Virus record (IMG/VR): IMGVR_UViG_646311924_000020
DNA: 43,730 bases
Strand: one strand, 5' to 3'
Source of the DNA: a virus
Lineage: Duplodnaviria > Heunggongvirae > Uroviricota > Caudoviricetes
The position numbers and the translations under genes are program-made. Below are positions 27,875 through 43,457 of the stretch, piece after piece (within the stretch, counting starts at the first letter, position 1; the number at the start of each line of letters is the position of its first letter). The notes beneath the pieces were generated by a model. It saw only the letters and a program-made list of their open reading frames with translations. It was not told the DNA's origin and searched no databases.

Positions 27875-27950
27875 TGGTGCTGGTTAACGGACTTGAACCG
27901 CTACCCATTCGCTTACAAGGCGACTGCTCTACCATTGGAGCTAAACCAGC
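27875..27950 (-). tRNA. tRNA-Thr (anticodon UGU)
   Basis: 76 nt cloverleaf folded by hand: acceptor GCTGGTT/AACCAGC, D-arm GCTC/GAGC, anticodon loop CTTGTAA, T-arm with TTCAAGT loop, discriminator A, encoded CCA. Confidence 0.75.
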
Positions 27951-27955
27951 ATATT

Positions 27956-28030
27956 TGGCGGGACAGCGTGGACTCGAACCACGATAAGAAGGTTAACAGC
28001 CTTCCGTAATGACCTTTATACGACTGACCC
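27956..28030 (-). tRNA. tRNA-Asn-like (anticodon GUU), non-canonical, possibly pseudo-tRNA
   Basis: 75 nt: anticodon stem GAAGG/CCTTC with loop CTGTTAA, T-arm CGTGG-TTCGAGT-CCACG, encoded CCA; but acceptor stem has a T-T mismatch and the D-stem is only 3 bp. Confidence 0.55.
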
Positions 28031-29458: not shown

Positions 29459-30057
29459 GCGGCCTCACTTCTGCTATTTCGCAGGTCTTTGAGTTTCTGT
29501 TGGTACTCTGCCTTGATCGCCTTGCACTCTTCGACAGTCCAGCGATGGCGGCTATGGTTTGATTCGATTTCGTCTACTGCTTCCTGCCCGATGCGGTTAA
29601 TCAGTTCGACGCGATACGGAACGAGATTTCCGCTTTTGTGCTGGTTGCACACCACGCATTGCTTGTGAATATTGCGTTCATCAAATCGGAGTTGAGGTGC
29701 CGCAGCAGTTGTCCGGTAATGTCCGGCATCCCACTGAGCAGACGTGAGCGTTCCGCACGAGATACATGGTAAGTCGCGGTCTCTTTCTCTGATGAAGGCG
29801 TTTACGGCTTGTTGGGCTTGTTTAATCCAGTAACTGCGGGGCTTTAAGGCGAGTTTTCGAATCTTAAGTTTATCTTTCTGTTTCTGCTCCTCTCGTCGTC
29901 GTTTCTTCTCTGCTGCTTTTTCCGCTTTTTCGCGTTCTTTGCTTCGTCGTTCGAGTGCTATCTTGGTTCCACAAATCTCATTACACCAATATTGATTTTG
30001 ATATTTTGGTATAAACCATTCATTGCAACATTTACATTTCCTTCGATAGATTCGCAT
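29455..30057 (-). CDS. ninG: NinG (Rap-like recombination protein)
   Basis: From ATG 30057 ([15 protein letters not shown]...) the product matches recalled lambda NinG over most of its length ([18 protein letters not shown]...[20 protein letters not shown]...[10 protein letters not shown]...); the N-terminal ~30 codons are AT-rich and diverged. Confidence 0.85.
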
Positions 30058-30598
30058 AAGTGCTCCTTTCGTTGCCGGAAAAATCACCGTAATACTTATC
30101 TCGGGCTTCTTCAGCAACTAGTACCGCTAACTCCAGATCATCAAAGCATCCGAAGTGTTTACTCTTGCCATGGAATCCTAGCCTAACATTCCATTTTTTC
30201 TGTCGTTTGTGCCAAGTAACCCCTCTGCAACCTGATTTGCTATTCTTTCGGATCCTTATATTTCTTGAATTTTCTATTGGCAGGCATTCTCTTAAATTTT
30301 CTGGCCTATTGTCGGTCCTAATTCCATTAACGTGGTCAATTTGACCAGCAGGCCAACGATTATGAGTTATGTAAAAAACTAAGACGTGAGTTTTATATCT
30401 ACGCCCATCTATCATGATCATTGAATAACCGTTGGAATCAAAAGTTCCAGCAACACTATTTAATGCTATCCTTCCCTGAGTGGGAACTTTCCATCTAAAT
30501 ACCCCGGTAGATTTATCGAAACTTAGTAACTCAAATATCCTTTTAACAGTTAAATCTTCTCTTTTACGGTTACATCGTCTTCGCGCTGGTTTAGCCAT
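30032..30598 (-). CDS. HNH homing endonuclease with AP2-type DNA-binding domain
   Basis: 188 aa; HNH core ([33 protein letters not shown]) followed by AP2-like segment ([24 protein letters not shown]); AT-rich; overlaps the ninG start by 26 nt and begins MAKPARRRC. Confidence 0.8.
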
Positions 30599-30761
30599 CG
30601 TCTTCTTCCTCGTACATTGAGCTATTCGGATCGCTCATCAGTTCTGCGCAGCAATCGGAGCACACGTGAACTTCCAGCACATGCAGCTTCTGACCGCAGT
30701 TAGCGCACGTTAAAGCTCGCTCGACGCTTTCTTGTTCGTAACTTCGATTTGGGTCAATCAC
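30591..30761 (-). CDS. ninF: NinF
   Basis: C-terminal [46 protein letters not shown] matches recalled lambda NinF; start placed at GTG 30761 (GTGA overlap with ninE stop) for a 56 aa product. Confidence 0.7.
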
Positions 30762-30940
30762 CTTGTATTCCTCGCACGATGTCTTAGCCACCGGATATCC
30801 CACAGGTGAGCCGTGTAGTTGAAGGTTTTTACGTCAGATTCTTTTGGGATTGGCTTGCGTTTATTTCTGGATCGCTTCGTTGGAAGGTATTTGCAGTTTT
30901 CGCAGATGATGTCGGTGATACTTCGTCGCTGTCGTCTCAT
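30758..30940 (-). CDS. ninE: NinE
   Basis: 60 aa [60 protein letters not shown], matches recalled lambda NinE; ATGA overlap with upstream gene. Confidence 0.85.
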
Positions 30941-31464
30941 GCCGCCCTCCTGACGCCCCGCCCGATCGCCATCAATGCCGCTTTGGATACGGTAGTAAAC
31001 ATCCGTCGAGGACTGATGAACGGTCGCCAAATCAGCAGCATGGAGCCTTTACTGTTTCCCTTCTTCTCCAGCCCTGTCGATGGTTCGATAAAATTAATCC
31101 GTCCATCAGTGATAATGCGAACTTCGTCGACACTCTCCAGAGCCTTGCTGAACCATCCGACTGACATATCCTCTGGCACAAGCATAACTACCGTCTGTCG
31201 CTGTTGTATGCACTGCTCAGCGGCTTTTTCCACCCACGGCCTGATATTGCTGTACGGTGGGTTATTCCAGATTGCACCGTGGCTTATCCACTCAGAATTT
31301 AGCGCGTCGTCAGCCTCAGTTAGCCAGTGAGCGCACAGAGCGTTTTTGTCGCTCGCAGCTGAATCCAGCCAGAATCCAAACTCAATATCCAGCGCATCAA
31401 AAAGCCAGAGCGGCGTTTGCCAGCAGTCCTTGTCGTGTGCTGGCGTATTTGATTTGATAGTCAT
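30937..31464 (-). CDS. orphan DNA N6-adenine methyltransferase (phage Dam-like)
   Basis: 175 aa from ATG 31464 (ATGA overlap with ninB stop); catalytic NPPY motif ([10 protein letters not shown]) and N-terminal [13 protein letters not shown] block typical of small phage adenine methyltransferases; no adjacent restriction gene. Confidence 0.8.
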
Positions 31465-31907
31465 GCAGCCTTCCCTTTTCGTTGTGACCATTCATACTCT
31501 CGCCGGGAGTCATCACTCCACCGCACGTTGCGCTCTGAGCCGAACCAGAACATGATTTCGATAAGCTCAGTCATGCTGGCCTTTCGCATTTTGCTGGTAC
31601 GCACGCCAAGCATGACAACGCCACCGTCGATACCAGGCGCACTTCTTTGCTCCAGTTTTTTGGTCTTAAGCCACAGGGCAGTGAACAGGTCTTTCCAGTC
31701 TTCCGGCGCCAGCCGTTGACCATGCCATAGCACCTGACGCGAAACATCGTTCAGCATCGGCCACATGCGGTCATTCTGCGCTTTGCTGCGCTTGGGTTCT
31801 TTAACGTGGACTTCGTGGGGTGACTTGTCGTCGATGGGTAGTGAGAGAATGGCGTCTATGGCGTTATTTCTGATTGCTTCGTTGCGAAGCAGAAAGGTTT
31901 GCTTCAT
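31461..31907 (-). CDS. ninB: NinB (Orf-family recombination mediator)
   Basis: Start at internal ATG 31907 (MKQTFLLRNEAIRNNAIDAIL...); blocks QNDRMWPMLNDVSRQVLWHG and ERNVRWSDDSRREYEW parallel recalled lambda NinB. Confidence 0.8.
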   Translation of the reverse strand: MKQTFLLRNEAIRNNAIDAILSLPIDDKSPHEVHVKEPKRSKAQNDRMWPMLNDVSRQVLWHGQRLAPEDWKDLFTALWLKTKKLEQRSAPGIDGGVVMLGVRTSKMRKASMTELIEIMFWFGSERNVRWSDDSRREYEWSQRKGKAA

Positions 31908-32100
31908 CTCCTGCTCTCCGGTTCCATTTTTCAGTAGCCGCAGCAACTGATGGTGCCCATGCCACCCTGGCTTCACAGAGGTCACATTCTGCATAGCCCC
32001 ACACATCAATATTTATTCCGGCCTCAACCCACAGACGAGCATTACCGCCGCAAAACGGACATTCTTTTAGCTTTGGCTGGGTTAATGATAGGTCGCTCAT
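31864..32100 (-). CDS. Lar-like restriction alleviation protein (zinc ribbon)
   Basis: 78 aa from ATG 32100 (MSDLSLTQPKLKECPFCGGNARLWVEAG...CDLCEARVAW...); CPFCGG motif as in Lar-family proteins as I recall them. Family assignment from memory, moderate. Confidence 0.45.
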   Translation of the reverse strand: MSDLSLTQPKLKECPFCGGNARLWVEAGINIDVWGYAECDLCEARVAWAPSVAAATEKWNRRAGDEANLSASQRSNQK

Positions 32101-32110
32101 GCTCACTCCT

Positions 32111-32326
32111 TCACTTAAAATCCAGACTCCGGATAATTCTGTTGCGCTGAAACTCATTGTTGAGTTTGAACAACCGTCGAAGAACACGGTCACGCGGATA
32201 GCGTCGTGCGGCAGGTGAATGCTCATACAACTCATCAAGCGGCAAACTGGACGATGAACGATACCGATACCAACGCACCAACTCTTCACGAAAATTAGCC
32301 CTGACAAGCTCAGCTATCGTACTCAT
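32111..32326 (-). CDS. hypothetical protein (71 aa)
   Basis: ATG start 9 nt after GGAGG; Arg-rich; no family recognised. Confidence 0.45.
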   Translation of the reverse strand: MSTIAELVRANFREELVRWYRYRSSSSLPLDELYEHSPAARRYPRDRVLRRLFKLNNEFQRNRIIRSLDFK

Positions 32327-32458
32327 TTCTTAAAACCTCCTCAAACGCATTCTGACGCATTTTTCATTCTCGCTGCTTATCGGTATACCTTGCACGTGCT
32401 TACCTCACCACAGAGCGATTGTGATGCCTTAAAAGCGATTTATTGAAGTGATATTTGC

Positions 32459-32737
32459 TTAATCGAAATTCTTTTCTTTGATTCCTGCGGCCCTGATGGC
32501 TTTCATTACTGCAATTACCGTTTTGTCACGCCCATCCTCATAACCCATCGCATAAGCACCTTCTTCACCATCTTTCCAAAGGTCGTCATTCGATTCGGGC
32601 CAGTCGATATCCAGTTCAATAGCAGAGCGCGATGCCTGCCATATCACCCAGGCAAACTCTTTTAATTCATCGTCTCCCGTGAACTGGCTTTTGTCTTTTG
32701 ACCACCAGTTTTCAAACTGTCGGTAGCTATCGTTCAC
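32459..32737 (-). CDS. hypothetical acidic protein (about 92 aa)
   Basis: ORF-track ORF 32459-32752 starts at a TTG; GTG 32737 preceded by GGAG is the more likely start. Trp/acidic-rich, no family recognised. Confidence 0.45.
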   Translation of the reverse strand: MNDSYRQFENWWSKDKSQFTGDDELKEFAWVIWQASRSAIELDIDWPESNDDLWKDGEEGAYAMGYEDGRDKTVIAVMKAIRAAGIKEKNFD

Positions 32738-32754
32738 TTCCCTCTCCCCCAAAT

Positions 32755-32787
32755 AAAAAGGCCTGCGATTACAGCAGGCCTGTTATT
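32755..32787 (-). terminator. intrinsic terminator in nin region (tR2-like)
   Basis: Perfect 7 bp stem GGCCTGC/GCAGGCC with 7 nt loop; minus strand followed by UUUUUAUUU; plus strand followed by UGUUAUU. Confidence 0.55.
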
Positions 32788-32806
32788 AACTCAGTGATGT
32801 AGATGG

Positions 32807-33076
32807 TCATTGCTTCATCTCCCTTTCCATTTCATCAATGTCAACGTCATCAGGAAGATGGGAGCAATACGCCGCTATACCATGATGATTTATCTCATAC
32901 CCTTTGAACGTTACCATCTGGCGCGTAATCTCAACTTCGTTCAGGAATCCGCCATCGCATAACTGCCTGGCTATTTTCGATTTGGTCTGGATTATTGGTA
33001 GTGCCTGTTCTTTCAAAGCGTATGATATTTGCGCATCCCATGCCTTTTCGAGAATGGCTAATTGTTTTTTATTCAT
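32807..33076 (-). CDS. hypothetical protein (89 aa)
   Basis: Operon-strand ORF immediately downstream of helicase gene; no family recognised. Confidence 0.5.
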   Translation of the reverse strand: MNKKQLAILEKAWDAQISYALKEQALPIIQTKSKIARQLCDGGFLNEVEITRQMVTFKGYEINHHGIAAYCSHLPDDVDIDEMEREMKQ

Positions 33077-34512
33077 CAGAATCCTCCTTTCTTCTTGGAC
33101 TGCGGTTCCTCGCGTTCACGTCGGCGCATTTCAGCAGACTGTTGGTCTGTGTCATAAATAGCGCCATTTGCCTGAATGCAATACACCGTGCCGGTATTGC
33201 CATGACGATTGAGACGAAGGATTAGTTCGGTTTCACCAGGTGGAACACTGTCATCAAAAGCACCTTCACGATGGATCCCCACCCAATAATCGCAATCCTG
33301 TTCAATCTGCCCTGTATCTCGTGAGTCACTTGGTAATGGGCGTTTATTGGTTCGGCTTTCCAGTGCGCGGTTAAGTTGCGTCAGAAGCACAACAACGCAA
33401 TCAAGCTCTTTGGCAAGGTTCTTCAGTCCTTTGGTGATCATGCCGTAAGCAAGGTCGTTGCGATCGGCCTTCTCAGCGGTCATTAGTGTCAGGTAATCGA
33501 CCAGAATCATGCCAACACATCCTTTTTCTCGCTTGATTCGACGGCTTTCGCTGACGATTTGAGCCAGAGATAATCCCGGCGTGTCGTCGATGTAAAGCAT
33601 GTCGATTTCACTCAAGCGATTGGCTGTTTCGATCGCCCTGTTGAAGTCACCATCGTAATCACCCTGATAGCCGTCATCGGCGTCATTTGTCGCCGGAAGG
33701 TAAAAAATATTCGGGTTAACACCAGACTTCTGCCCTACCAGTTTTTCCAGTATCTGATCACCTGGCATTTCAAGGCTGAACATCAGAGCGGGCTTTTTCT
33801 CATGCACTGCGCAATTGATTGCCATCTGGCTGTATAGCGTCGTTTTCCCCATCTTAGGGCGAGCGCCAATGACAAACAGAGAGCCTTTCACCAGACCTTT
33901 CGGTGACAGCATCCTGTCCAGCGATGGGATCCCTGTGCTCATTCCCCGTTGTTCGCCTGATGGGTCAAATCGCTTCTCAAGGTCGCTAACCCAGTCTTCC
34001 ATGACCTCGCCAAATGAGCGAAGGCCGCGACGCGATCCGGTTTTTGCATGGTCTGTCAGTTGCGTGAAAATCGCCTGAATAGCTTCGTACTTCTGCGTCG
34101 CAGTCATTCCGTTGCGGGAATAGAGCAATTCCGTCGCTTCAGTCATGCGGTTGATGGCGTAGCGTTCCATTGCGGTTTCACGAACCTGCATTGCATAGGC
34201 AACGATGTTTGCTGCGCTTGGCGTGTTCTTTGCGATCTCAGCGATATAAGCAAAACCGCCAACAGACACCGTTAACGATTTACGCTCCAGTTCATCGAAA
34301 AGCGTCAGGCCATCTACTGGCTTTTGCTCCCGGTGCATTCTGGTTATTTCTTCGAAAAGGATTTTGTGTGGTCGGCTGTAAAATGAATCAGGCTTCAGCA
34401 TCGCCAGAACTTTCTGGACGCGCTCACTGCTGTCATCATCCAGAAGCAATCCACCAATCACCGCCTGCTCTGCCTCGATGCTATGGGGCGGCGCATAAAA
34501 ATTATCGGTCAT
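33076..34512 (-). CDS. replicative DNA helicase (DnaB family, P22 gp12-like)
   Basis: Walker A GARPKMGKTT, DnaB-type N-terminal domain (SIEAEQAVIGGLLLD) and RecA-like C-terminal domain; start placed at second ATG ([10 protein letters not shown]). Confidence 0.9.
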   Translation of the reverse strand: MTDNFYAPPHSIEAEQAVIGGLLLDDDSSERVQKVLAMLKPDSFYSRPHKILFEEITRMHREQKPVDGLTLFDELERKSLTVSVGGFAYIAEIAKNTPSAANIVAYAMQVRETAMERYAINRMTEATELLYSRNGMTATQKYEAIQAIFTQLTDHAKTGSRRGLRSFGEVMEDWVSDLEKRFDPSGEQRGMSTGIPSLDRMLSPKGLVKGSLFVIGARPKMGKTTLYSQMAINCAVHEKKPALMFSLEMPGDQILEKLVGQKSGVNPNIFYLPATNDADDGYQGDYDGDFNRAIETANRLSEIDMLYIDDTPGLSLAQIVSESRRIKREKGCVGMILVDYLTLMTAEKADRNDLAYGMITKGLKNLAKELDCVVVLLTQLNRALESRTNKRPLPSDSRDTGQIEQDCDYWVGIHREGAFDDSVPPGETELILRLNRHGNTGTVYCIQANGAIYDTDQQSAEMRRREREEPQSKKKGGF

Positions 34513-37743: not shown

Positions 37744-37944
37744 ATGACTACGACTACTGATAAAAATCAATGGTGTGGACAATTCAAGCGATGCAATGGA
37801 TGCAAGCTGCAATCGGAATGCATGGTTAAGCCTGAAGAAATGTTTCCTGTAATGGAAGATGGGAAATATGTCGATAAATGGGCAATACGAACGACGGCAA
37901 TGATTGCCAGAGAACTTGGTAAACTGAACAACAAGGCTGCCTGA
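37744..37944 (+). CDS. ral: Ral (restriction alleviation protein)
   Basis: 66 aa MTTTTDKNQWCGQFKRCNGCKLQSECMVKPEEMFPVMEDGKYVDKWAIRTTAMIARELGKLNNKAA, matches recalled lambda Ral. Confidence 0.85.
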   Translation: MTTTTDKNQWCGQFKRCNGCKLQSECMVKPEEMFPVMEDGKYVDKWAIRTTAMIARELGKLNNKAA

Positions 37945-40113: not shown

Positions 40114-40407
40114 ATGCCAGCGCCTCTGTATGGTGCGGATGACCCGCGCCGCTGTTCCGGCAATTCCGTATCGGAGGTGCTGGATAAATTCAGGAAAAAT
40201 TACGACCGGATAATGTCGCTACCGCAGGAAACAAAAGAGGAAAAGGAATTTCGCCACTGCGTATGGCTTGCAGAGAAAGAAGAACGCGAGCGAATTTACC
40301 AGACATCAATCCGACCATTCCGCAAAGCCACATATACCCACTTCCCTGAAATTGACCCGCGCCTGCGTAATTACCGCTCACGCTATGGCGCTATCAGTAA
40401 TAACTGA
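40114..40407 (+). CDS. possible Abc2-like anti-RecBCD protein (97 aa)
   Basis: Size and position (second gene after erf) fit P22 abc2; I cannot verify sequence identity from memory. Confidence 0.4.
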
Positions 40408-40585: not shown

Positions 40586-40881
40586 GTGTATGTCTTATTG
40601 ATAAACGTCGACGTGGGCAACAAATACCATCTGTTGAAATGCCGAATCACACATGGTTTTGCGTACTTGATATCGATGGTATGGATACGTTGGTTGACAC
40701 TCGTCATTACTGCGATACCGCAACAGCTACTCCGGCGAAAGCAAAGAAAATTGCTGCTCTGATAGAAAACTGGACTCCACCTGATGGTTGGTGCAATGGG
40801 AATGATCGAGATTGGCATGAAAAAATGAAGGGCTATATCTGCGATTTCTTACGTAAATGCAACGGATTCAGGGTGATGTGA
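40582..40881 (+). CDS. hypothetical protein (99 aa)
   Basis: GTG start overlapping previous stop; Cys/Trp-containing small protein. Confidence 0.45.
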
Positions 40882-40882
40882 C

Positions 40883-41437
40883 ATGAACAAGATTGACTAT
40901 CAGGCACTGCGTGCCAAGGCAGAAAAAGCAACGTGTGGTGAGTGGTCGCTCGAATATGGAGAGGAGAGATTTGATGCTGGTGATGCGCTAATTCATCGTG
41001 AAGTTGTTGGATATCTTCCCATTTGCAGAATTGAAGGAGCGCATCCTGAAAGCGGTTTCGATGAAGATTTCCAGATGGAACAGCAGGCCAATGCTGAATT
41101 TATTGCTGCCTTTAATCCAAAGGTTGCTTTGGCACTGCTGGATGAACGGGAAAGAAACCAGCAATACATCAAACGCCGCGACCAGGAGAACGAGGATATT
41201 GCGCTAACGGTAGGGAAGCTGCGCGTTGAGCTTGAAGCAGAAAAACAGCGGGCAAAAGTTCTATTTATGGAAAATGCTCGGCTTAAGTCAGGCATAGCCG
41301 GTCTGATACACCTCGGTATTCGATATGCAGATGTTGAGGTCATGAAAATTGCTGGAGATGCCCAGCTTTCTACCCCATGCACTGACAGCATCATAAACAG
41401 CATTGCAACAGGCATTCGCATCAAAGGAGGTGAGTAA
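40883..41437 (+). CDS. hypothetical coiled-coil protein, possibly Ead/Ea22-like
   Basis: 184 aa with central coiled-coil (RRDQENEDIALTVGKLRVELEAEKQRAKVLFMENARLK); resembles Ead/Ea22-like prophage proteins by memory only. Confidence 0.45.
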   Translation: MNKIDYQALRAKAEKATCGEWSLEYGEERFDAGDALIHREVVGYLPICRIEGAHPESGFDEDFQMEQQANAEFIAAFNPKVALALLDERERNQQYIKRRDQENEDIALTVGKLRVELEAEKQRAKVLFMENARLKSGIAGLIHLGIRYADVEVMKIAGDAQLSTPCTDSIINSIATGIRIKGGE

Positions 41438-41613
41438 TGCGTGTGGCATGTATCGGCTTGTTACCGTACCCGACTCGTTTTTGGGCTTCTGCGCTAATTG
41501 CAAAGCCGCATGTCCTGATGGCTGACAACATCATCCCGGCACCAAAGCGCCGCCATACCGGTATTGCATCGGCACGACGAGCAGCAAAGAAACGCAGGAG
41601 AGCAAAACGATGA
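41437..41613 (+). CDS. hypothetical protein (58 aa, basic C-terminus)
   Basis: Translationally coupled small ORF (TAATG start, ATGA stop overlap). Confidence 0.3.
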   Translation: MRVACIGLLPYPTRFWASALIAKPHVLMADNIIPAPKRRHTGIASARRAAKKRRRAKR

Positions 41614-41798
41614 AAAACCGTAAAGCAAAGATTCTGTTAGTTCGTAGAAACGCTCCTGGCGTCTGGCAGTGGGTGAGACTCAGCAACCGACGGGTGGGGT
41701 TAATGAAACATTACGGGATGATGGATTGTGGTTTTTGCAAAAAGCCCAGCGCGGCGCAAAACCGCTGGAAAAACCACTTGCGTACTAAAGGAGAGTGA
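41610..41798 (+). CDS. hypothetical protein (62 aa)
   Basis: Start overlaps previous stop; basic, Cys-containing. Confidence 0.3.
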   Translation: MKNRKAKILLVRRNAPGVWQWVRLSNRRVGLMKHYGMMDCGFCKKPSAAQNRWKNHLRTKGE

Positions 41799-41799
41799 T

Positions 41800-42009
41800 A
41801 TGGCTATTGCCGCAAGTTACACCATGCATCTCTATTGTGACTGCCGCCAGTGTACGGAAGGTGTATATCCAGTGCCAGACTTCGGAGAGTATATCGGCAC
41901 GTCATGGGCTGGTTGTGCAAAAGAGGCGCGTAAGGATGGCTGGCGAATAAGCAAAGACAAAACACGTGCTTTTGCGCCTGGGCATAAAGTTTTGAGGATT
42001 AACAAATGA
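41800..42009 (+). CDS. hypothetical Cys-rich protein (69 aa)
   Basis: ATG 41800 after AAGGAGAG; MAIAASYTMHLYCDCRQCTEGVYPVPDFGEYIG... Confidence 0.35.
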   Translation: MAIAASYTMHLYCDCRQCTEGVYPVPDFGEYIGTSWAGCAKEARKDGWRISKDKTRAFAPGHKVLRINK

Positions 42010-42809
42010 CCACTATTACCAGAGAACAAGCTCTGAAAATTATTGAGGCAGCCGATGAGGTTATTAGTGCGCTTGCCGGAACTAACGAGGATGTTCACCC
42101 TGGTAGCGATAACATGCTACGCCTGTGGGATGACCTGAATGACCGTTACGCGCCGCCGGAAGTTGTGCGTGAGCTGGCACGGATTGCGCTGGCATCGTTG
42201 GAAGCAAAACCAATAGGTGCATTCCACATTGCAGAACAGCAAGTTGACGGCACAAGTGACTACCTCAAGGATGGAGAATGGCCTATTGATAATGGGACAA
42301 TTGAAGTATACGCCGCCCCTCCAGTGCCAGTAGTACCTGAAGAAAAACCAATGCCTAACCCTCTTAGCATGTACGCGGTCGATGCTGTTGCCGCTATTGC
42401 AGAGGTGAGAGGCTGGAACGCCTGCCGCGCCGCCATGCTTCATGGTGCCGAACCTGTAAGCCAAACTTACAAGTCACAACACACGCAGTTTGAACAAGTT
42501 GCTGACCTCTACGAAATGCAATTTGATGACGGTCGCACTTGTGCCTTTCACACTGATGCGCAAAAGGCTGCGCAATGGCTTCAGGCATGCGACGGAAACA
42601 GGGTTCAGGAATACGTGAAGCTGGAGCGATTGCGTAATGCGCTATCGGGCAACTCTCCGGTAACTCCGGATGGTTGGGTTATGGTGCCGAAGGAACCAAC
42701 TCAGGCCATGATTAAAGCGTGGCTATCAGAGATTGCTAACTTTCGCGGTCATGCTGCTGGTTACAGGGCTGCTCTTGAGGCAGCACCACAGGAGGTTAAC
42801 CGTGGCTAA
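42006..42809 (+). CDS. hypothetical protein (267 aa)
   Basis: Longest ORF of the early accessory region; no family recognised. Confidence 0.55.
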   Translation: MTTITREQALKIIEAADEVISALAGTNEDVHPGSDNMLRLWDDLNDRYAPPEVVRELARIALASLEAKPIGAFHIAEQQVDGTSDYLKDGEWPIDNGTIEVYAAPPVPVVPEEKPMPNPLSMYAVDAVAAIAEVRGWNACRAAMLHGAEPVSQTYKSQHTQFEQVADLYEMQFDDGRTCAFHTDAQKAAQWLQACDGNRVQEYVKLERLRNALSGNSPVTPDGWVMVPKEPTQAMIKAWLSEIANFRGHAAGYRAALEAAPQEVNRG

Positions 42810-43086
42810 CCTGCAACTTGCCGTCAAAGGTGAATACTTCGATGCCATGATTCGCGGAGAGAAAACAGAAGAGTATCGCCTGTGTAATGACTACTGGAAT
42901 AAGCGAATTATGTTCCGGGAGTATGACCGCCTGATTATCACAAAGGGATATCCGAAGCGCGACGACTCCAGCCGCAGAATAGACGTCCCGTATGACGGAT
43001 ATGAAATCAAGACAATCACACATCCCCACTTCGGCGATAAACCGGTAAAGGTGTTCGCGATAAATGTGAATATCGGCAATGAATAA
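42802..43086 (+). CDS. ASCH-domain-like protein (94 aa)
   Basis: GTG 42802 after GGAGG; VANLQLAVKGEYFDAMIRGEKTEEYRL... resembles ASCH/PUA-like small proteins (from memory). Confidence 0.45.
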   Translation: MANLQLAVKGEYFDAMIRGEKTEEYRLCNDYWNKRIMFREYDRLIITKGYPKRDDSSRRIDVPYDGYEIKTITHPHFGDKPVKVFAINVNIGNE

Positions 43087-43145
43087 CAACCCTCGCATTT
43101 GCGGGGATTTCTTTTATCTGAACTCGCTACGGCGAGTTTTGTTTT

Positions 43146-43457
43146 ATGGAGATGATTATGGTCTGTTCAACATTCAACCATCTAACGTTACAGAAATACC
43201 AGCCAGACCCTGAAGATTTATGCTCACTGTGTGGCGGAAATCATGGTAAAGCCGCCATGATCGAATGTAATGACAAAATCCACATTTGCCTTAATTGCGT
43301 TGATGTCCTCGTTGATATCAAAAATGAGAGAGAAGATAAAAAGCGTAGCGAGGCTATTCGCGCCTTAGATTCATGGATGCGAGATGGGTATAGTGCTGCG
43401 CAAATTTATGACTTAGCAATATCAAAAGGCGAAATACCAGGAGTACGCATCGAATAA
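43146..43457 (+). CDS. hypothetical protein (103 aa), possible zinc-binding
   Basis: Contains CSLCGG...CNDKIHICLNC cysteine pattern. Confidence 0.5.
   Translation: MEMIMVCSTFNHLTLQKYQPDPEDLCSLCGGNHGKAAMIECNDKIHICLNCVDVLVDIKNEREDKKRSEAIRALDSWMRDGYSAAQIYDLAISKGEIPGVRIE

Follow-up and report, generated by a model that had tools for sequence, protein, structure and literature searches.

Adenine methyltransferases encoded by phages and prophages have been described from several elements. T1 Dam (M.EcoT1Dam) methylates GATC on phage DNA from a dam− host, and a deletion of the gene removes this methylation and cuts the burst size to ~60%; T1 DNA is only partly methylated when host Dam acts alone (PMC10470545). 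M.Btr190III, a prophage-borne enzyme that is 35% identical to T1 Dam, methylates GATC when cloned, with off-target activity, and seems not to be expressed in the lysogen (PMC4996451). A "phage VT-2 dam methyltransferase" was, as later papers cite it, cloned in 2001 (Radlinska and Bujnicki, cited in PMC7556043 and PMC6602927), and M.EcoVT2Dam "of prophage VT2-Sa" is listed as GATC-specific in a methylome paper on Escherichia coli O111 (PMC6602927). Orf13 of Haemophilus phage HP1 is the gene cited in the literature as HP1 Dam, a Dam methyltransferase. A gene of this kind lies in the nin region of a 43,730-nucleotide stretch of viral DNA (IMG/VR record IMGVR_UViG_646311924_000020; the whole stretch is hereafter called the window), which corresponds to a P22-like lambdoid prophage flanked by dacD and sbcB in E. 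coli O111:H8-type strains. In the account that follows, GATC specificity and the effect on T1 yield are taken from the literature, and family, motifs, predicted fold, position and near-identity to the VT2 protein were established from the window.

The product of this gene is very probably a solitary, S-adenosylmethionine (SAM)-dependent DNA N6-adenine methyltransferase that methylates the adenine of GATC, as judged from its sequence relationships. It belongs to the phage N-6-adenine-methyltransferase family, with matches above the curated thresholds and over the full length to PF05869 ("Dam"; E 2e-64, 216.7 bits against a cutoff of 28.1, profile positions 1-167 of 169) and to the equivalog-level NCBIfam model TIGR01712 (E 4e-79, 263.9 bits against a cutoff of 97.05, positions 1-165 of 165). 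The protein also matches PHROG 111 (phrog_111), and its top PADLOC models are "orphan methyltransferase". The catalytic motif NPPY (N68-P69-P70-Y71) is encoded at nucleotides 31252-31263 and is preceded by WQTP (motif X-like, residues 15-18) and LDSAAS (motif I-like, residues 33-38); NPPY 68-71, T17-P18, and D34 are invariant among 37 homologues of 59-98% identity and are likewise kept in HP1 Dam and T1 Dam when these are aligned. The open reading frame (ORF), the two profile matches and the position of NPPY bear out the 175-residue NPPY N6-adenine methyltransferase proposed in a first-pass annotation of this DNA, which had been made from the sequence by a model.

That annotation called the target specificity unknown, a statement that does not hold. 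The window protein is identical at 173 of 175 residues to orf32 of VT2-Sakai (NP_050531.1), the two substitutions being I60V and R170Q. Orf32 is the only annotated methyltransferase of VT2-Sakai, and no other of its genes contains a (D/N)PP(Y/F) pattern; because no other methyltransferase gene was found in that phage, orf32 is most likely M.EcoVT2Dam. The GATC listing of M.EcoVT2Dam thereby extends by elimination to a near-identical protein, and T1 Dam and M.Btr190III methylate the same site. Expression in a dam-deficient host, which the first-pass annotation asked for, appears to have been done already on the near-identical VT2 copy.

By analogy with T1 and the lambdoid phages, the enzyme likely serves to top up the GATC methylation of phage DNA as it replicates rapidly in the lytic cycle. 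The gene lies ~5 kb downstream of a cro-like gene on the same strand, and by lambdoid analogy it would belong to the early-right (PR) operon under repressor control and be silent in the lysogen, the methyltransferase being made only after induction or infection, once an N-type antiterminator acts. A strong terminator-like hairpin (AGGCCTGC...GCAGGCCT, then a T-run) precedes the nin genes in the coding-strand direction and is a candidate counterpart of lambda tR2, in which case methyltransferase expression would depend on antitermination. During lytic growth the enzyme would add to host Dam, and fast-replicating phage DNA would become fully GATC-methylated; such DNA would be guarded against nucleases that act at unmethylated or hemimethylated GATC, such as MutH and the DpnII/MboI-type enzymes of other hosts, and this guarding would raise phage yield.

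Lambda and P22 virion DNA has been reported to be undermethylated by host Dam (PMC8022706). In the window, GATC is depleted about two-fold (88 sites, against 182 +/- 11 in shuffles), with an observed/expected ratio of 0.42 under a Markov model, the second-lowest of the 16 four-base palindromes; CTAG (0.36) and GGCC (0.53) are also low, and two stretches, from 30967 to 33274 and from 40807 to 43259, are free of GATC. The undermethylated virion DNA, the T1 data and the GATC depletion together make the top-up role the best supported one, and protection of phage DNA, as put forward in the first-pass annotation, is a reasonable role. The comparison of lysogen and cured-strain methylomes proposed there is not expected to be informative: in the lysogen the gene is probably repressed, and its product is masked by host Dam, which methylates GATC to 99.9%, so that no difference is expected even with a fully active enzyme.

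Several points weigh against this account. GATC depletion is general in enterobacterial phages, with or without this methyltransferase gene. The equation of orf32 with M.EcoVT2Dam is reached by elimination only, and the homologues of M.EcoVT2Dam are placed only on two Stx2 prophages of O111 in a paper whose supplements give no locus information for them (PMC6602927). Related O111 genomes hold 2-4 copies of the methyltransferase gene, and therefore REBASE naming and orf32 mapping may not coincide exactly. Given the off-target methylation by cloned family members, strict GATC specificity is not assured (PMC4996451). Finally, two copies of the insertion sequence IS1203 lie in structural genes; the prophage may be defective, and the gene would then be without a current role.

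That the gene is itself an inactive relic in a decaying prophage is nevertheless extremely improbable. The two IS1203 copies do interrupt the virion-gene region, and prophage methyltransferases are usually silent in lysogens; against this, the ORF is full length, both differences from the VT2 protein fall outside the conserved motifs, every family-invariant residue is kept, and vB_EcoP_phi367, which was deposited as a phage genome, has a 100% identical copy of the gene. The gene copy in the window is intact.

Other kinds of enzyme can be weighed on the same evidence. A relaxed or non-specific adenine methyltransferase, giving broad anti-restriction cover as M.EcoGII or Hia5 does, is unlikely: the non-specific enzymes belong to other families (M.EcoGI/GII are beta class and 349 aa long, Hia5 is alpha class and Dam-related), the window protein has no match to the Pfam models of the M.EcoGII or Hia5 families, and the characterised members of its own family (T1 Dam, M.Btr190III, and M.EcoVT2Dam as listed) all have GATC as primary site, T1 DNA from a dam− host being DpnI-sensitive and hence methylated at GATC. 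As possible relatives, Hia5, Hin1523, and Nma1821 were ruled out as PF05869 members, being alpha-class Dam-related enzymes (PMC3299994, PMC5778455), and M.EcoGI/GII were ruled out by their class and length; the M.EcoGII-type homologue of phiP27 (NP_543076.1) has 352 aa and lies downstream of Q. Quite unlikely, too, is the idea that the ATGA links to the neighbouring genes reflect a partnership with NinB, in which the enzyme would act on NinB/Orf-bound single-stranded DNA or on recombination or replication intermediates, or that the enzyme has substantial non-GATC activity in vivo. If true, non-GATC activity would extend the anti-restriction cover of the phage beyond that of "a second Dam", and either reading would account for the way in which an enzyme of 175 aa that has no recognition domain reaches its substrate. 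An RNA rather than a DNA methyltransferase has precedents in M.EcoPA8orf6770P with PNB-2, which acts on 16S rRNA, and in eukaryotic CAPAM, yet here it is very improbable, the window methyltransferase having neither an MT-A70 domain nor a PNB-2 partner. The identification of the window gene and NinB with the rRNA methyltransferase and PNB-2 of a Stx-phage prophage (Koudelka lab) was ruled out by lack of similarity: PA8 gp5 is an MT-A70 protein (PF05063) with a BLASTP E of 2.0 against the window protein, and gp6, at E 2.2 against the window NinB, is not NinB. M.EcoGV is an MT-A70 enzyme of the M.EcoPA8orf6770P type and not the window methyltransferase.

The first-pass annotation also stated that the window holds no partner restriction enzyme, and as far as can be detected this is correct. 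No restriction enzyme was found in the PGAP annotation of the matching prophage, nor in Pfam and PADLOC scans of the neighbours and hypothetical ORFs, scans that unrecognisable nucleases could escape; a codon-level (D/N)PP(Y/F) scan of the window found no second amino-methyltransferase gene. The flanking genes are ninB and ninE, and thus no recognisable restriction endonuclease gene adjoins the methyltransferase gene as in a Type II restriction-modification system. An endonuclease gene with HNH_3 and AP2 domains lies two genes downstream, between ninF and ninG (30032..30598, minus strand), overlapping these by 8 nt and 26 nt, respectively; because the nin regions of lambda and VT2-Sakai are without such a gene, it looks like a homing-endonuclease-type insertion. 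That the methyltransferase is the methylase half of a restriction-modification system with a nearby unrecognised nuclease has next to no probability, even though this endonuclease gene is present and restriction enzymes are hard to spot from sequence. VT2-Sakai carries a 99% identical methyltransferase between ninB and ninE yet no HNH gene in its nin region, lambda also lacks one there, and the HNH_3 plus AP2 arrangement is that of homing endonucleases. PADLOC gave no defence-system match for the HNH protein or the hypothetical ORFs and classed the methyltransferase as orphan, and a restriction enzyme for GATC would kill only a dam− host and has no obvious role in dam+ E. coli.

The preferred reading, a solitary GATC methyltransferase, leaves the question of its relation to host Dam. 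An AlphaFold model built from the 37 sequences is confident (predicted local distance difference test 88, predicted template modelling score 0.85) and predicts a Rossmann-fold methyltransferase, nearest to PCIF1/CAPAM and M.TaqI and also like M.BseCI, MmeI, CamA, and Type I HsdM subunits; in each match to a solved structure 133-146 residues align, the catalytic domain only. The protein is thus modelled as a compact single catalytic domain without a separate target-recognition domain. The order WQTP, LDSAAS, then NPPY ~30 residues on is that of the gamma class; these ~30 residues between LDSAAS and NPPY leave no space for an inserted domain, and the alpha-class order is not found. E. coli Dam and T4 Dam (alpha class, PF02086) show no detectable sequence homology to the window protein: PF05869 is its sole Pfam match at E <= 0.01, with none to PF02086, and phmmer against the PDB sequences, EcoDam and T4 Dam included, gave no significant match. 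E. coli Dam is also larger and, unlike the window protein, has a target-recognition domain set between its SAM-binding motif and its catalytic motif; T1 Dam likewise has no sequence similarity to host Dam (PMC10470545). Because of this lack of detectable homology and the different domain layout, the GATC specificity common to host Dam and the PF05869 enzymes looks convergent and not inherited from a shared ancestor. "Dam-like", the term of the first-pass annotation, is therefore apt for function and as the Pfam family name and misleading for ancestry, the protein having neither a PF02086 match nor a pairwise relation to E. coli Dam.

Since there is no separate target-recognition domain, sequence recognition would have to come from loops of the catalytic domain, and a conserved R-I-x-F-I...T-G...G-N-x-K-G hairpin at residues 121-141 may be the recognition element. 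A sequence search of the PDB returned no solved structure for PF05869 itself; how such very small, domain-less enzymes read GATC is a point of specialist interest.

The gene is a minus-strand ORF of 528 nt (175 codons and stop); the first-pass annotation had not named the strand. The ORF listing also gives a longer version, 30937..31491 (184 aa), that starts at an upstream ATG. The 175-aa start, at the ATG at 31464, is the better choice, because PGAP calls exactly the 528-nt gene (WP_000153271.1) in identical DNA, because the Pfam and TIGRFAM matches open at residues 11-13 of the 184-aa form, because the start of HP1 Dam aligns with this one (MMTKSNT against MTIKSNT), and because this ATG and the ninB stop codon share bases in an ATGA, with GGGAAGG before it. 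PGAP names WP_000153271.1 "phage N-6-adenine-methyltransferase" in E. coli chromosomes that are 100% identical here. The feature is an already known, routinely annotated and very common phage gene, real but ordinary.

The features of the locus are collected in Table 1. The overlap with ninB suggests translational coupling; ATGA junctions are typical of lambdoid nin regions (PMC8022706). The Pfam match of NinE starts at an internal Met of a 90-aa ORF. In some database entries the methyltransferase domain is joined to a NinE, CII, RusA or NinB domain; such fusions probably stem from frameshifts or miscalled genes at the ATGA junctions, or else from mosaics formed by recombination.

Table 1. Positions in the window of the methyltransferase gene, its neighbours, and associated signals.
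Feature	Position	Strand	Basis
Phage N6-adenine DNA methyltransferase, 175 aa (HP1 Dam / T1 Dam / M.EcoVT2Dam family)	30937..31464	minus	ORF, PF05869, TIGR01712, phrog_111, RefSeq WP_000153271.1
ninB (Orf-family recombination mediator), directly upstream in the same operon	31461..31907	minus	PF05772 E 4e-48; PGAP
ninE, directly downstream	30758..30940	minus	PF05322 E 6e-43; PGAP
ATGA overlap, ninB stop (TGA) / methyltransferase start (ATG)	31461..31464	minus	sequence read directly
ATGA overlap, methyltransferase stop / ninE start codon	30937..30940	minus	sequence; NinE Pfam start; PGAP NinE coordinates
Terminator-like hairpin (candidate tR2 counterpart), 8-bp stem with 6 G-C pairs, then T-run	32759..32781	minus	consensus scan only

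The order of genes on the minus strand is cro, cII, replication genes, small ORFs, a Lar-like gene, ninB, the methyltransferase gene, ninE, ninF, the HNH endonuclease gene, ninG, ninH, a phosphatase gene, and Q. NinB-methyltransferase-NinE in the window stands against NinB-NinC-NinD-NinE in lambda, and the gene accordingly sits where lambda has ninC/ninD, as the first-pass annotation had placed it. Three other counter-defence genes are annotated in the prophage, namely a Lar-family restriction-alleviation gene (31864..32100, minus), which overlaps the start of ninB, and Ral antirestriction and anti-RecBCD (Abc-like) genes; coordinates mapped from PGAP annotation of identical DNA add 37744..37944 (plus) and 40114..40407 (plus) to that of the Lar-family gene. 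Between Q and the lysis genes lie tRNA-Thr (TGT; 27875..27950) and tRNA-Asn (GTT; 27956..28030), both on the minus strand, at the position where Shiga toxin (Stx) phages carry tRNAs and stx genes. The two IS1203-family (IS3-like) copies stand in inverted orientation in the virion-assembly genes, at ~15256..16572 and ~18439..19749; the related prophage of E2863 has one IS1203 copy at a different site, and none is annotated in this prophage in SD134209. The prophage is probably defective for particle production.

At >= 95% nucleotide identity (that is, at least 95%), the gene occurs in 244 phage records, the majority of them Stx1 and Stx2 phages, with HK544 and mEp213 (whose copies are 98-99% identical) among the others, and in 1565 of 5426 complete E. 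coli genomes (~29%), at up to five places per genome. The family, searched by tblastn, is represented in 2130 of 50,697 phage records, including T1-like, Vibrio, Klebsiella, Lactococcus, and Gordonia phages, and the methyltransferase gene is found in different mosaic contexts. As a discovery the locus carries small weight, being a common and routinely annotated gene whose near-identical VT2 counterpart is most likely the enzyme with a listed specificity; what such methyltransferases add to the fitness of lambdoid phages has been measured in T1 alone.

Among the known systems, the closest is M.EcoVT2Dam/VT2-Sakai orf32, which likewise has 175 aa and the same neighbours (ninB and ninE on either side, a Lar-like gene upstream); its host element is a Stx2 phage, whereas the window protein belongs to a P22-like E. 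coli O111 prophage. HP1 Dam (NP_043482.1; 173 aa) is 38% identical to the window protein and collinear with it from the first residues, and differs in setting, being the last gene of the early operon in a P2-like Haemophilus phage instead of a member of a nin region. T1 Dam (YP_003925.1) shares 33% identity with the window protein (E 2e-26) and keeps NPPYS and the other motifs, but at 237 aa it is longer, having 45 extra residues at the N-terminus and an insertion of 14 residues, and it belongs to a virulent phage. The nearest solved folds, the CAPAM/PCIF1 methyltransferase domain and M.TaqI (both gamma-class N6-adenine methyltransferases), share only 14-17% identity with the window protein and are far larger, multidomain proteins with substrate-recognition domains of their own, which the window protein is without.
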